DNA of 32,000 nt. Origin: Bacillota bacterium (GTDB taxonomy: Bacteria; Bacillota; Desulfotomaculia; Desulfotomaculales; Desulfocucumaceae). Below the pieces are notes generated by a model. That model did no database searches, had not been told where the DNA came from, and saw only the letters and a program-made list of their open reading frames with translations. Shown one piece after another: positions 28,208 through 31,542 of the stretch. The first letter of the stretch is position 1, and each line of letters starts with the position of its first letter. Position numbers and translations under genes: made by a program. Where the stretch lies: contig JBMOPC010000101.1 in the NCBI GenBank assembly GCA_049323915.1, positions 1 through 32,000 on the forward strand. The letters are read 5' to 3'.

Positions 28208-28753
28208 TCAGAAAATAACATTTAAGATTTCTGAGAACAGCTCACTGGATCTCACTATTCCCACCAGCCTGTCATTTTCCAATACCGGCAGCATATTCCT
28301 CTTCTCCCTGAATAATTTGAACACAGCTTCTTCAAGGGTGCTGTCGGTTAACAATGCTGTGTTCAAAGGCTCAATTATGTCACGCACCGGTTTTTGGGCG
28401 ACTTCCAGGCACAGATTGGTAAAAAGCCCCTTCATAAACACGGGATCCACCCAGCTGGAGACATTCCATCCGCGATACCAGTCGTCCCGCAGGTTTGGAG
28501 GCTGAACAGACGCCAGTAGTTCCTGAATACTTACAAACCCTATAATGGACTTGTTTTCGAAAACCAGTAAAAAGCTCTGATCTATGCCGGTCCCCTGCCC
28601 CACCAGTGAGTTTTTCAATATATAGGCCGCATCCTTTACCGTGGTATCCGCAGACACCGACGAGAAGCTTTCCATCGGAATCATGATATCCCCCACGGCT
28701 TTTTCCTTTTTATATCCGTTAATGGGTTTTATACGTTCCACAGGAAATCCCAT
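28208..28753 (-). CDS. CBS-domain pair protein
   Basis: There are two CBS-like repeats (...VKDAAYILKNS...GFVSIQELL and ...LEEAVFKLFREKRNMLPVLENDRLVGIVRSSEL). AAAGGAGG lies upstream. Confidence 0.85.
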   Translation of the reverse strand: MGFPVERIKPINGYKKEKAVGDIMIPMESFSSVSADTTVKDAAYILKNSLVGQGTGIDQSFLLVFENKSIIGFVSIQELLASVQPPNLRDDWYRGWNVSSWVDPVFMKGLFTNLCLEVAQKPVRDIIEPLNTALLTDSTLEEAVFKLFREKRNMLPVLENDRLVGIVRSSELFSEILNVIF

Positions 28754-29369
28754 ATTGATTTACCTCCTTTATTCATTTTAACAGCAATCTTGCATAATAT
28801 ATGCCAGCCATCAGTACAAGGCCCTTTTTCCCGCAGAAAGCTAAATAGACTTGTTATTACGCTATTATAAGCCTGCAAACATATGTGATTTCTTTTTCTT
28901 TTACCATTACCAACCGGATGAAAGCATGTGACCTTAAGTATTTGCACAATATTAAACAGTTGTCTGAATACGTACGATCACCGGCAAAACCCTATCCTTA
29001 TTGACTAATCCCATACTGATAATAAATAATGCCTGTCATTCAAAATATGGACAACCTATGTCAGGCCCAATTTTGTAAATTCTTTTTGTCCTCCTTGCAT
29101 ACCACCGGAGCTTGTGATATTATATACAAAATAGCCTTAGTGCTGGTCACCACAACGGGGATTTTTTTAGGAGAGATAGTCCTAGTTTTCACATTCACTA
29201 TATAGATGCCGTTGCTAAAATAAAGCTGGGGGTGGTGTCCCTTGAAAGTTTTATAACACCTATGCCATGATTAACCTGCTGGCCGCTTTTGCCAGGATCA
29301 GCGCGGAATTGCCGGCAGGTATACTCCCCGGCAAAGATGAAAGATCTACTGATGCGTGATCGCCGACAG

Positions 29370-29392
29370 GGGGAAGGGAAGTCCGCGTTGGC
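29370..29392 (+). repeat. Copy 1 of an exact 23-nt leader motif GGGGAAGGGAAGTCCGCGTTGGC
   Basis: Identical to 29763-29785. It lies 40 nt upstream of the small-protein ATG at 29432. Confidence 0.6.
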
Positions 29393-29431
29393 ACAAAATC
29401 TTAATTAAGCTTAAAGGGGGTTGGTTCAATC

Positions 29432-29611
29432 ATGCTTAAAGAATGGCTGGAAAGAAACCTGCAAGATCCGTTTTTCCGGGCCGAGATGGTAAAAGCCGGG
29501 ATAAACGTGGCCGAAGGAGCCGACAAAAACCTCGGGACAGTCAGTGCGATGGCTTTTTTCGGCGCTATCTATATGGCTTTCTGCGTATTCTGGTATGCAA
29601 AATATATCTGA
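29432..29611 (+). CDS. Small protein (59 aa) with a C-terminal TM helix, not in the ORF track
   Basis: MLKEWLERNLQDPFFRAEMVKAGINVAEGADKNLGTVSAMAFFGAIYMAFCVFWYAKYI. AAAGGGGG lies upstream. The gene is co-oriented with the TauE-like gene. Confidence 0.4.
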   Translation: MLKEWLERNLQDPFFRAEMVKAGINVAEGADKNLGTVSAMAFFGAIYMAFCVFWYAKYI

Positions 29612-29762
29612 GCATGTGAATTATAATTTAAATTCATGTGCCATAATTGTCATCAGGCGGGGGGCCGGGAACCGCAGTAACGGGTCCTACCGTTGATCCC
29701 TCGCCCCCCTGCCGATAATTTTTCATGCCGCATATAGGAAAAACATGCCTGCACCGCATCCA

Positions 29763-29785
29763 GGGGAAGGGAAGTCCGCGTTGGC
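29763..29785 (+). repeat. Copy 2 of the exact 23-nt leader motif
   Basis: Identical to 29370-29392. It lies 43 nt upstream of the TauE-like ATG at 29828. Confidence 0.6.
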
Positions 29786-29827
29786 CGGCACAGGCCGATA
29801 TACGGTATGGTATTGGGGTGACCCGAA

Positions 29828-30820
29828 ATGGCCTATTTGCCTTTTGGAGATATGGACCTGAGTTTAACAACCATTTTACTGACTGGGATGATAATCGGGG
29901 TTTTCAAAGGAGCCTTCGGTAAGCTTGCAAATATTCTCATTGTCCCTTACCTGAGTATCCTTGGCCTTCCCATCTCAATTTCCGTCAGCACGGGGGCCGG
30001 GGTCTGTTTGGGCCGCACCTCCCTGTCTGTTTTCACTTTCGGCCCGGAATACACCGCATTAAAAAGAGTGGGAGTGGTTACCGGTATATTGGGGCTGCCG
30101 GGAGTATATTTAGGTCTCAAGATTCATCTTTTGCTGGCGGGTGCCGCTTTTGCAAACACTGCCATACTTTTGATTTATTCCGGCATTCTGCTGTGCGCGG
30201 CTGCGGTGTTGTTCAGGCAGTGGAGTTTCTTCCAGCGCAACGACTACTATGATGAGGCGCCCTTTCCGCCCTTCGGCCTTAACTGGAGATTTCCACTGGC
30301 AGTGCCCGGGGGATCAGGCCTTAGCCACATCACACTGTCCCGGGTGGCACTGACGGGTTTTCTGCTGGGAATTGCCACAGGTTTTTTAGGTCTGGGAGCA
30401 GGCATACTGGGAATTCCGCTTTTCATGTACATACTGGGCCTTCCGCCTAAAAACGCTGCGGCAACCGACTCCATATCCATGCTTATTATCAGCTCAGGGA
30501 CGCTGCTGGCCTATGCCGCAGCGGGGCGGGCGGAGCCCATAGCCATTGCAGCCCTGGTGGCGGCGGTTACTTTGGGAAACCGTATAGGCTTGCTATTGCC
30601 CGGAGAGATTAATCACAGTCACGCAAGACTGGCATTTGCCATGCTGCTGGCCATAGGCGGGCTGTCTGCCGCTTTTAGTCTCAACGATTCTGCGCTTTCC
30701 CGCGTCGTTGTCTCAGTGGCCGGATTGGCCCTGTGTATTGTGATGGCAGTATTTTCAGCGCTGTCCGGGAAAGTATTGGACCAGGAAAAGCGGGTCGCCC
30801 GGAATAAAAATCTTGTTTAG
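29828..30820 (+). CDS. TauE/SafE (DUF81)-like membrane permease, divergent paralogue
   Basis: The protein is polytopic, with a duplicated G-rich motif (GFLLGIATGFLGLGAGILGIPLFMYILGLP in the second half). GGGGTGA lies 6 nt upstream. Confidence 0.7.
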   Translation: MAYLPFGDMDLSLTTILLTGMIIGVFKGAFGKLANILIVPYLSILGLPISISVSTGAGVCLGRTSLSVFTFGPEYTALKRVGVVTGILGLPGVYLGLKIHLLLAGAAFANTAILLIYSGILLCAAAVLFRQWSFFQRNDYYDEAPFPPFGLNWRFPLAVPGGSGLSHITLSRVALTGFLLGIATGFLGLGAGILGIPLFMYILGLPPKNAAATDSISMLIISSGTLLAYAAAGRAEPIAIAALVAAVTLGNRIGLLLPGEINHSHARLAFAMLLAIGGLSAAFSLNDSALSRVVVSVAGLALCIVMAVFSALSGKVLDQEKRVARNKNLV

Positions 30821-30855: not shown

Positions 30856-31542
30856 TCAGGTAATGCCCAGCTGATTAAGCAAGGGTTTTGTTATTGAGAT
30901 GAAATCAGCAAATTTCCTGGCAGCTTGAGCCACATCTCCGTAAACTGTTTCAATTGGAAGCAAAATCTTTAACCTGTATTTGCCTGTGGCCTCCACCTTG
31001 GGAAGTTCCCTATCCAGAACGCTTCCCAATTTTTTTTCTATCTCGGATTTAAGATCCAGAAGGGGCAGGAAGATATTCTTTTTGTGACCGTCCATCACCA
31101 GATCCAGCACCAGAAATTCCTGCCCCCTGTTGGGCCCTTTCCTCGGCCTGGTTTTGCCTATCCTGTAATATATGTCGGTTTTGGCAAACACCTTTACACA
31201 TTTCCATGACTCGGTTATGCCAAGGCTCTGTCCTGGCAGAATATAGACAATGTTGATGTTTTTGGGGGCCAGCAAGTTCTTGACCTCCAATAACACTTCA
31301 TCCACAAATTCCTCAAATGTTTTTGTGTTTATGGAAACATCTTTTCGGGACGGCACGTTTTCTTCCTTCAGCCATTTCTCAAACCAGTCCAGCACCCTTT
31401 TATGATCCAGCTTACCATCCGGACCAATGAAGGATTTTTCGATCTGTTTTTTTTCCATATCTTTAAGGAAAGCTTTTTTTCTGCGGTTAAAAATATCGAT
31501 AAAATTTTTATCGGTCACGGCATACCGCTCCCTTTGCAACAT
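30856..31542 (-). CDS. Hypothetical soluble protein (228 aa), AT-rich gene
   Basis: A clean ORF with lysine-rich composition. No motif recognised with confidence. Confidence 0.65.
   Translation of the reverse strand: MLQRERYAVTDKNFIDIFNRRKKAFLKDMEKKQIEKSFIGPDGKLDHKRVLDWFEKWLKEENVPSRKDVSINTKTFEEFVDEVLLEVKNLLAPKNINIVYILPGQSLGITESWKCVKVFAKTDIYYRIGKTRPRKGPNRGQEFLVLDLVMDGHKKNIFLPLLDLKSEIEKKLGSVLDRELPKVEATGKYRLKILLPIETVYGDVAQAARKFADFISITKPLLNQLGIT

Follow-up and report, generated by a model that had tools for sequence, protein, structure and literature searches.

Cis-encoded antisense RNAs such as CopA/CopT of plasmid R1 and RNA I/RNA II of ColE1 begin to pair with their targets by loop-loop kissing, and 'excludon'-type loci produce long antisense 3' regions of convergent genes. 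Conserved hairpins that recur, in gene orientation, in the 5' leader and in an intercistronic region are known from the PyrR loops of the Bacillus pyr operon, where PyrR binds several leaders (three in Bacillus), and from ANTAR and TRAP. The Guanidine-II (mini-ykkC) riboswitch combines two similar small hairpins whose loops interact. Here we analysed a stretch of 32,000 nt, referred to as the window, from a bacterium of the Bacillota (Desulfocucumaceae; assembly GCA_049323915.1, contig JBMOPC010000101.1, positions 1 to 32,000). In the window a block of about 26 nt occurs twice, once in the leader of the gene for a small membrane protein, smallB, and once in the leader of a gene for a TauE/SafE-family permease, in short TauE. 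By analogy the element would work most like kissing-loop antisense systems or multi-copy protein-binding leader hairpins. The features concerned are:

29367 to 29392, plus strand: block 1, composed of CAG, 2 variable nt, a 15-nt core (29372-29386), G and TTGGC
29761 to 29785, plus strand: block 2, composed of CAG, 1 nt, the 15-nt core (29765-29779), G and TTGGC
29432 to 29611, plus strand: smallB, encoding a protein of 59 amino acids (aa) with a C-terminal transmembrane helix, downstream of copy 1
29828 to 30820, plus strand: TauE/SafE-family permease, 330 aa (PF01925, E = 2.8e-23), downstream of copy 2
29362 to 29392, plus strand: copy 1 hairpin, with a stem of 29362-29367 and 29387-29392 that encloses AG, GG and the core 29372-29386
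29747 to 29795, minus strand: extended copy 2 hairpin, with an outer 10-bp helix of 29747-29756 and 29786-29795
29737 to 29746, minus strand: A-run 5' of the copy 2 helix, corresponding to the minus-strand U-rich tail AUGUUUUUCC after the helix

Conservation and joint absence of the two blocks

The 23-mer GGGGAAGGGAAGTCCGCGTTGGC is present in the window at 29370-29392 and at 29763-29785, both times on the plus strand and with 0 mismatches. The number of matches expected by chance was 0, and none of 100 dinucleotide-preserving shuffles of the window gave a match. Even when up to 3 mismatches were allowed the 23-mer was confined to these two sites across the 3.6-Mb genome. The 3' end of copy 1 is 39 nt away from the ATG of smallB (29432), that of copy 2 is 42 nt away from the ATG of TauE (29828). 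The identity shared by the copies reaches 5' to CAG, about 26 nt in total, and the flanks of copy 1 and copy 2 are unrelated. A preliminary description of the window had reported an exact 23-nt duplicate in front of two membrane-protein genes, and its coordinates were correct. It had also considered that the copies might be the edges of a recent segmental duplication. Because their flanks are unrelated, they are not.

When 41 relatives were searched at the DNA level, the locus turned up in 9 genomes, all from a single family. Eight of these carried both copies and the ninth, G002, carried none. Exact scans with an extended pattern covered one genome per GTDB species and Joint Genome Institute (JGI) metagenomes. 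They added this locus only, from metagenome-assembled genomes labelled Peptococcaceae or Bacillota and from two metagenome contigs; the remaining single pattern matches had unrelated flanks, and many of them were in coding DNA. Contigs with TauE homologues yielded seven more loci carrying both copies. The comparison set thus consists of 17 species-level loci, i.e. the window and 16 others, from a Peptococcaceae/Desulfocucumaceae-like family with 34 sites, and the motif is restricted to three genera of uncultured relatives of sulfate reducers.

The 15-nt core GGAAGGGAAGTCCGC was identical in 33 of the 34 sites. Mean pairwise identity across the 17 loci amounted to 92.7% in block 1 as compared to 37% in the leader that follows it, and to 94.3% in block 2 as compared to 34.5% in the following leader. 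The coding regions of the locus had 62-65% mean pairwise identity. Copy 1 was as conserved as copy 2 in 16 of 17 loci. Thus, the idea that the block is selectively retained amid poorly alignable surroundings was borne out (93-94% versus 34-37% identity), and the alignment shows both copies to be under strong purifying selection. With both of them present in 16 other species-level loci, the duplication of the block is old.

In 162 genomes of the order, versions of the core with one mismatch occurred about as often as matches to a reversed control pattern; the hits had unrelated contexts and were mostly in open reading frames (ORFs). One look-alike of the core, in G030, turned out to be an ordinary terminator hairpin. 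A covariance model of the copy 1 hairpin retrieved no extra copies and none in the motif-less loci. Scanning the whole window against Rfam 15 gave no match at gathering score, in line with the early remark that the block belongs to no recognised riboswitch class. At E ≤ 10 the region 28700-30100 produced chance-level matches to unrelated families with at most 18.7 bits versus thresholds of 38-112. A literature search for the sequence returned no description of the block and one unrelated primer only. Taken together the paired element is real, strongly selected, previously undescribed and non-coding, and no named family fits it. The data require a function at the level of nucleic acid that is common to both copies, and the element most likely acts as RNA.

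Both copies are absent in five related loci (L110, L111, L112, G017 and G002). L110 carries the TauE homologue closest to that of the window (79% identity) and, like L111 and L112, keeps smallB and TauE. At the site of copy 1 L110 has lost about 30 nt including the block, and at the site of copy 2 about 133 nt are missing, which include copy 2 and most of a G+C-rich hairpin described below; the flanks align at both sites. L111 lacks about 38 nt holding copy 2, again with flanks that align. G017, a member of another genus, has smallB-like and TauE-like genes without the motif. In G002 TauE is lost and neither copy is present.

In a tree of TauE the window is sister to the motif-less L110 (support 98/96). 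G001 (motif-plus) and then L111 and L112 (motif-minus) branch successively outside of this pair, the sister group is a clade of 15 motif-plus loci, and at least three changes between presence and absence are needed. The two clades have the same block sequence, and the changes are therefore most plausibly independent losses, each of which would have affected both copies. According to the preliminary description an absence of the motif upstream of orthologous genes would refute its proposed role. Such absence was indeed seen in the five related loci, yet both copies were gone each time, which indicates that they are functionally coupled and not missing together by chance.

Opposite strand preferences of the two hairpins

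The copy 1 hairpin is favoured on the gene strand. It has a 6-bp stem of RCCRRC with GUUGGY and an inner GGA/UCC mini-stem that carries the 7-nt loop AGGGAAG. The fold energy in the window was -13.5 kcal/mol for the sense strand (z = -1.87) versus -8.2 kcal/mol for the antisense strand (z = -0.46). Of 16 relatives 15 retain the stem, with variants that are G-U on the gene strand. All one-sided stem changes resulted in G-U on the gene strand, and the gene-strand duplex was the more stable one in 16 of 16 loci. Terminator scans of both strands did not identify copy 1 as a terminator on either of them.

Copy 2 is embedded in a long helix of its own. Inside the outer helix there are a variable 3-nt bulge, an inner CCAG/TTGG stem and the core (29765-29779). 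In total, the outer helix has 38 G-U pairs on the minus strand across the loci versus 2 on the gene strand, and its summed duplex energy was -255 kcal/mol for the minus strand versus -147 kcal/mol for the gene strand. The minus-strand duplex was more stable in 16 of 17 loci. At three variable pairs the gene strand changes between U-A or C-G and C·A or A·C, while the minus strand has U-A or C-G and, in place of the mismatches, U·G or G·U. Furthermore, copy 2 of G001 has three gene-strand G-to-A changes, all of which keep the minus-strand pairing. In the window copy 2 folds with -22.2 kcal/mol on the minus and -18.4 kcal/mol on the plus strand.

Beside the copy 2 helix the gene strand has a run of 5-9 A, which on the minus strand is a U-run directly after the helix. 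Minus-strand hairpin and U-run are at the same aligned position in 16 of 17 loci, with stems of -11 to -22 kcal/mol, and in these loci the U-run starts 18-21 nt from the core. No other terminator-like signal of the minus strand was conserved in position. The gene strand has such signals at the G+C-rich hairpin or at copy 2 in 4-5 loci only. We conclude that the outer helix of copy 2 has been selected as a minus-strand RNA structure, predicted to be of the intrinsic-terminator type. In common with intrinsic terminators it has a G+C-rich helix followed by a U-run on the minus strand and covaries via G-U pairs. It differs from them in that the hairpin, of about 50 nt, is branched by internal loops and has an invariant apical part, and in its position within the 5' leader of a gene on the opposite strand.

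One of three early readings took the block for a protein operator or the core of a small cis-regulatory RNA, with pairing of GCCGAC and GTTGGC (29362-29367 and 29387-29392) around copy 1. The pairing is as described, and the outline of this interpretation holds insofar as the block is conserved, the copy 1 hairpin is kept and no Rfam class matches. It missed the long helix of copy 2, the selection on the minus strand and the joint gain or loss of the copies.

An antisense RNA and its rivals

We tentatively favor the view that a minus-strand RNA ending at copy 2 contains the block in complementary form and binds to both leaders by pairing, a reading that is possible yet falls short of probable. 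The leaders of the two genes would thus be marked with a non-coding sequence label, which we think acts by RNA-RNA pairing. The origin of such an RNA may be sought in the next gene:

30856 to 31542, minus strand: gene for a 228-aa protein, function unassigned, convergent with TauE

The stop codons of TauE and the 228-aa gene are 35 nt apart in the window, and 0-36 nt apart or overlapping in the relatives. A scan of the window detected no intrinsic terminator between the 228-aa gene and copy 2 on the minus strand. Since there is no terminator between TauE and the 228-aa gene, their transcripts must overlap unless Rho intervenes.

The simplest source of the minus-strand RNA would be read-through of the 228-aa gene, which in most species seems to be without a terminator of its own, and the transcript would end at the predicted terminator of copy 2. 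Its 3'-terminal hairpin would expose a sequence exactly complementary to the block, with CUUCCCU as the 7-nt loop at the tip. The RNA would be fully antisense to the TauE leader and, if started beyond TauE, to the TauE gene as well. Through the duplicated block the same RNA would pair over about 26 nt with the smallB leader, with a loop-loop contact to AGGGAAG in the copy 1 hairpin as the first step. In this manner one antisense RNA may address TauE in cis and smallB in trans, with control probably exerted via duplex-dependent cleavage or a block of translation. Keeping two separate loci complementary would help to freeze the sequence and would explain the joint loss.

Several features of the locus are in agreement with such pairing. 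Read on the minus strand, copy 2 is the complement of its own sense strand and, along about 26 nt, also that of copy 1. AGGGAAG and CUUCCCU, the 7-nt loops at the tips, are complementary and both are presented on GGA/UCC stems. Both copies share the block as one linear sequence although their local helices and internal loops differ, and recognition by base-pairing explains this better than an aptamer fold common to both. The two variable bases on the 5' side of the core have the same derived state in both copies of L066 and partly in those of L023 and the window. The antisense model accounts for the opposite strand preferences, the linear identity, the joint losses and part of the sequence freeze.

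CopA/CopT, RNA I/RNA II and the 'excludon'-type antisense 3' regions resemble the proposed RNA as structured RNAs from the opposite strand that end at an intrinsic terminator. Further common points are complementary 7-nt loops on stem-loops and a target in an mRNA leader. The locus differs from these systems in that the antisense transcript is a predicted one with no promoter found, and in that a second, nearby target is made by duplicating about 26 nt of the cis target. We know of no described case in which a duplicated cis target created a second antisense target.

On the other hand, a number of observations weigh against the antisense model. Within 450 nt the minus strand has no sigma-70-type promoter that is conserved in position, the stop codon of the 228-aa gene is close to weak terminator-like signals in a few species, and Rho could halt an untranslated antisense RNA. 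Three changes in copy 1 of G011 would weaken its pairing with the complement of copy 2, and within G001 and within G004 copy 1 and copy 2 disagree in the bases 5' of the core. The core shows no A-to-G in copy 1 and no G-to-A in copy 2, although complementarity tolerates both; the core is constrained by more than pairing. For the copy 1 stem covariation was not above background with 91.5% of the cells paired versus 91.1% after shuffling, and one pair was changed on both sides. Finally, the minus-strand terminator could exist for reasons of its own, e.g. insulation from convergent transcription, with the block being no functional part of it.

We also looked for a partner in trans. A scan of G000 and four relatives for sites complementary to the core, with G-U allowed, yielded no outlier, and the best match was inside a coding region. 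A C/U-rich site in the TauE coding region was rejected as a partner; it results from Gly-Leu-Pro codons, and motif-less relatives have it, too.

The main rival, which we consider only slightly less likely, is a single trans-acting RNA-binding protein, encoded elsewhere, that binds both sense hairpins; the minus-strand terminator would then be independent. The protein would read the purine-rich apical part, i.e. the GGA/UCC stem, the AGGGAAG loop and the flanking CAG and UUGG. It would co-regulate translation or stability of smallB and TauE similar to PyrR, and its loss would free both sites from selection. Near-invariance of 15-26 nt at 34 sites, which goes beyond the needs of complementarity, would be well explained, as would the same orientation of both copies, their similar distance to the ribosome-binding sites and the ability of both to fold a sense hairpin with the same apical part. 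The both-or-none pattern and the independent losses fit the loss of a common factor. Yet, no candidate protein was found in the locus, where the CBS-pair, 228-aa and 132-aa genes are also present if the motif is missing, and the 228-aa protein is devoid of a nucleic-acid-binding signature. As a binder this neighbour was rejected: it matched no family, its AlphaFold model had a predicted local distance difference test (pLDDT) value of 76, and the best PDB fold had E = 0.03 and a template modelling (TM) score of about 0.3. Moreover, the internal loops around the core differ between the copies, and the outer helix of copy 2 contains A·C mismatches in its sense form, selection having acted on the other strand. 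Between the hairpins and the Shine-Dalgarno (SD) sequence there are 15-35 nt, and no alternative pairing with the SD was found. Neither a terminator nor an SD-sequestering alternative was apparent downstream of the hairpins in the alignment and the gene-strand scan. The locus therefore differs from PyrR loops in having no downstream terminator/antiterminator alternative and no cognate protein found, and the block fits only the first 7 bases of the PyrR consensus, and this in some species only.

We regard it as unlikely that a dedicated transcription factor uses the block as an operator in double-stranded DNA, in which case two sites about 360-415 bp apart would act by roadblock or looping. The shared sequence is linear and independent of local RNA helices as expected for an operator, its invariance and joint loss fit a dedicated DNA-binding protein, and the spacing of the copies is within the range of the lac O1-O2 distance. 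However, the block has neither dyad symmetry nor a direct-repeat periodicity of 10-11 bp, and it is situated downstream of promoter-like elements, not over them. The spacing of the copies varies from 362 to 415 bp with no helical phasing, and the copy-specific arms with G-U on the gene strand in copy 1 and on the minus strand in copy 2 would be left unexplained.

Decidedly unlikely, in our opinion, is a copy 2 helix that is nothing but a one-way terminator shielding the locus, with a block that has no regulatory role of its own and is kept by gene conversion or passively. The strong minus-strand signature would need no further function, and the subclade of the window shows decay and repeated loss. 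But 15 invariant bases are not required in a terminator loop, and copy 1, which is no terminator on either strand, shows the same degree of conservation in 16 of 17 loci. Gene conversion accounts for identical copies in one genome, not for identity between genera.

Very improbable is also that each sense hairpin is a very small riboswitch aptamer for a sulfur oxyanion, another TauE substrate or a related metabolite or ion, by which the two cistrons are controlled separately. Invariant loop nucleotides within variable helices in the 5' leaders of transporter genes are suggestive of this, and the failure to match a known class is compatible with a new one. However, the copies share sequence rather than helix and loop geometry, no conserved downstream pseudoknot partner, terminator or SD-sequestering helix was found, the distribution is limited to three genera, and both genes persist without the motif in L110, L111 and L112, which are close relatives. 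As in Guanidine-II riboswitches there are two near-identical small hairpins with invariant loops in one regulatory unit. The differences are a distance of about 390 nt between the copies with a gene in between, identical purine loops unable to pair with each other, and the lack of an ACGR loop and of an Rfam match.

A leader peptide or upstream ORF (uORF) can practically be dismissed: although the core is followed by TTG in 33 of the 34 sites and most species have an SD-like AGGAGG in front of it, the TTG frames, which had been proposed together with an SD-like GGGAAG, run for 3-344 codons in the 17 loci with no conserved stop position, common end or peptide, and the proposed ATG-initiated uORF encoding ...GEGKSALA... 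fails in several species that have no start codon across copy 2 (in L006 and L009 in any frame) and with all three codon positions equally frozen. A three-frame analysis of both copies in 10 loci revealed no frame that was consistently open across copy 2.

Other candidates were rejected, too. Ends of mobile elements (IS200/IS605-type hairpins, integron attC or miniature inverted-repeat transposable elements) do not agree with exactly two copies per genome at a fixed syntenic place, and excision of a mobile element does not agree with motif-less relatives that keep the gene lying between the copies. Mimicry of a selenocysteine insertion sequence (SECIS), a sigma-54 promoter, a PyrR site, a K-turn, a G-quadruplex or signal recognition particle (SRP) RNA was judged by eye, and the respective features were absent or unconserved. 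A resemblance to conserved region I of RNase P RNA was superficial when compared to the genome's own RNase P RNA. The RNase P RNA of G000 (contig C94:16025-16372, minus strand, L122) scored 96.2 bits, just below the Rfam cut-off of 100, and has an unusual conserved region I (GAGGAAAGTCGAGAC).

Neighbouring elements and significance

Three further features surround the blocks:

29243 to 29359, plus strand: smallA remnant, degraded; the gene encodes a membrane protein of 48-65 aa
29615 to 29647, plus strand: block of TGTGAAT..TAT and TGTGCCATAAT, directly 3' of the smallB stop codon, identified by alignment
29654 to 29714, plus strand: G+C-rich long hairpin between smallB and copy 2, arms 29654-29664 and 29704-29714

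The long 'empty' spacer upstream of copy 1 houses the smallA remnant. smallA is intact in G001 and most relatives; compared to L008 the window copy has a deletion of about 30 nt and an early stop. In about 7 species the 3' end of smallA reads through copy 1, elsewhere smallA stops before the motif. Homologues of smallB were found in 20 of 162 genomes of the order.

A long stem upstream of copy 2 had been noted previously. It is real, but its arms lie 1-2 nt away from where they had been placed. The base of this hairpin pairs CGGGGGCC with GGCCCCCG, its interior is variable. Compensatory changes occur across relatives, e.g. GGGGACC/GGUCCCC in L121, without a strand preference. The hairpin is still present in the motif-less L111, and it is independent of the motif. 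A gene-strand U-run follows it in about 5 of 17 loci, and in some species the hairpin may be the end of a smallA-smallB transcript.

The block at 29615-29647 has a pairwise identity of 64.6% in non-coding DNA and could serve TauE as an internal promoter or as the site of a transcription factor. Farther upstream, the promoter region in front of smallA contains the boxes TTGTGATATTATATACAAAAT (29112-29132) and TTTTCACATTCACT (29186-29199), which are kept in several relatives (L005, L007, L010 and L110). The TTGTGATATTATATACAAAAT box is similar to the TGTGA..TAT boxes after smallB (29615-29647). These boxes may represent CRP/FNR-type sites or extended -10 promoters common to both transcription units.

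A CBS-pair gene (28208-28753, minus strand), a smallB-like gene (29432-29611, plus strand) and a gene for a 220-aa protein (30856-31542, minus strand) form a trio that recurs in other families of the order; the trio loci L093, L094, L098 and L102 have neither TauE nor the motif. The 220-aa protein of the trio carries a YYRIGKTRPRKGP motif. It matched no entry of Pfam, NCBIfam or PDB, and its AlphaFold model (pLDDT 76) gave no significant fold match. Two genes past the 220-aa gene, L111, L114, L116, L118 and L119 have a second TauE-family gene (314-318 aa) downstream on the opposite, minus strand. Thus, several relatives possess paired, convergent TauE permeases at this locus.

The element is sharply defined, and close relatives with clean deletions of both copies provide natural knock-outs. 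Its architecture is unusual in that one label is found on a gene-strand hairpin and within a predicted terminator of the opposite strand. If a protein binds the label, the motif would be a handle for finding it. If the antisense model is true, one convergent transcript would address two genes, in cis and via a duplicated label, which would amount to a compact principle of design and to antisense control in a new form. Little is known about regulation in uncultured subsurface sulfate-reducing Peptococcaceae-like bacteria, where TauE/TSUP permeases are candidate carriers of sulfite or sulfonate in sulfur metabolism.

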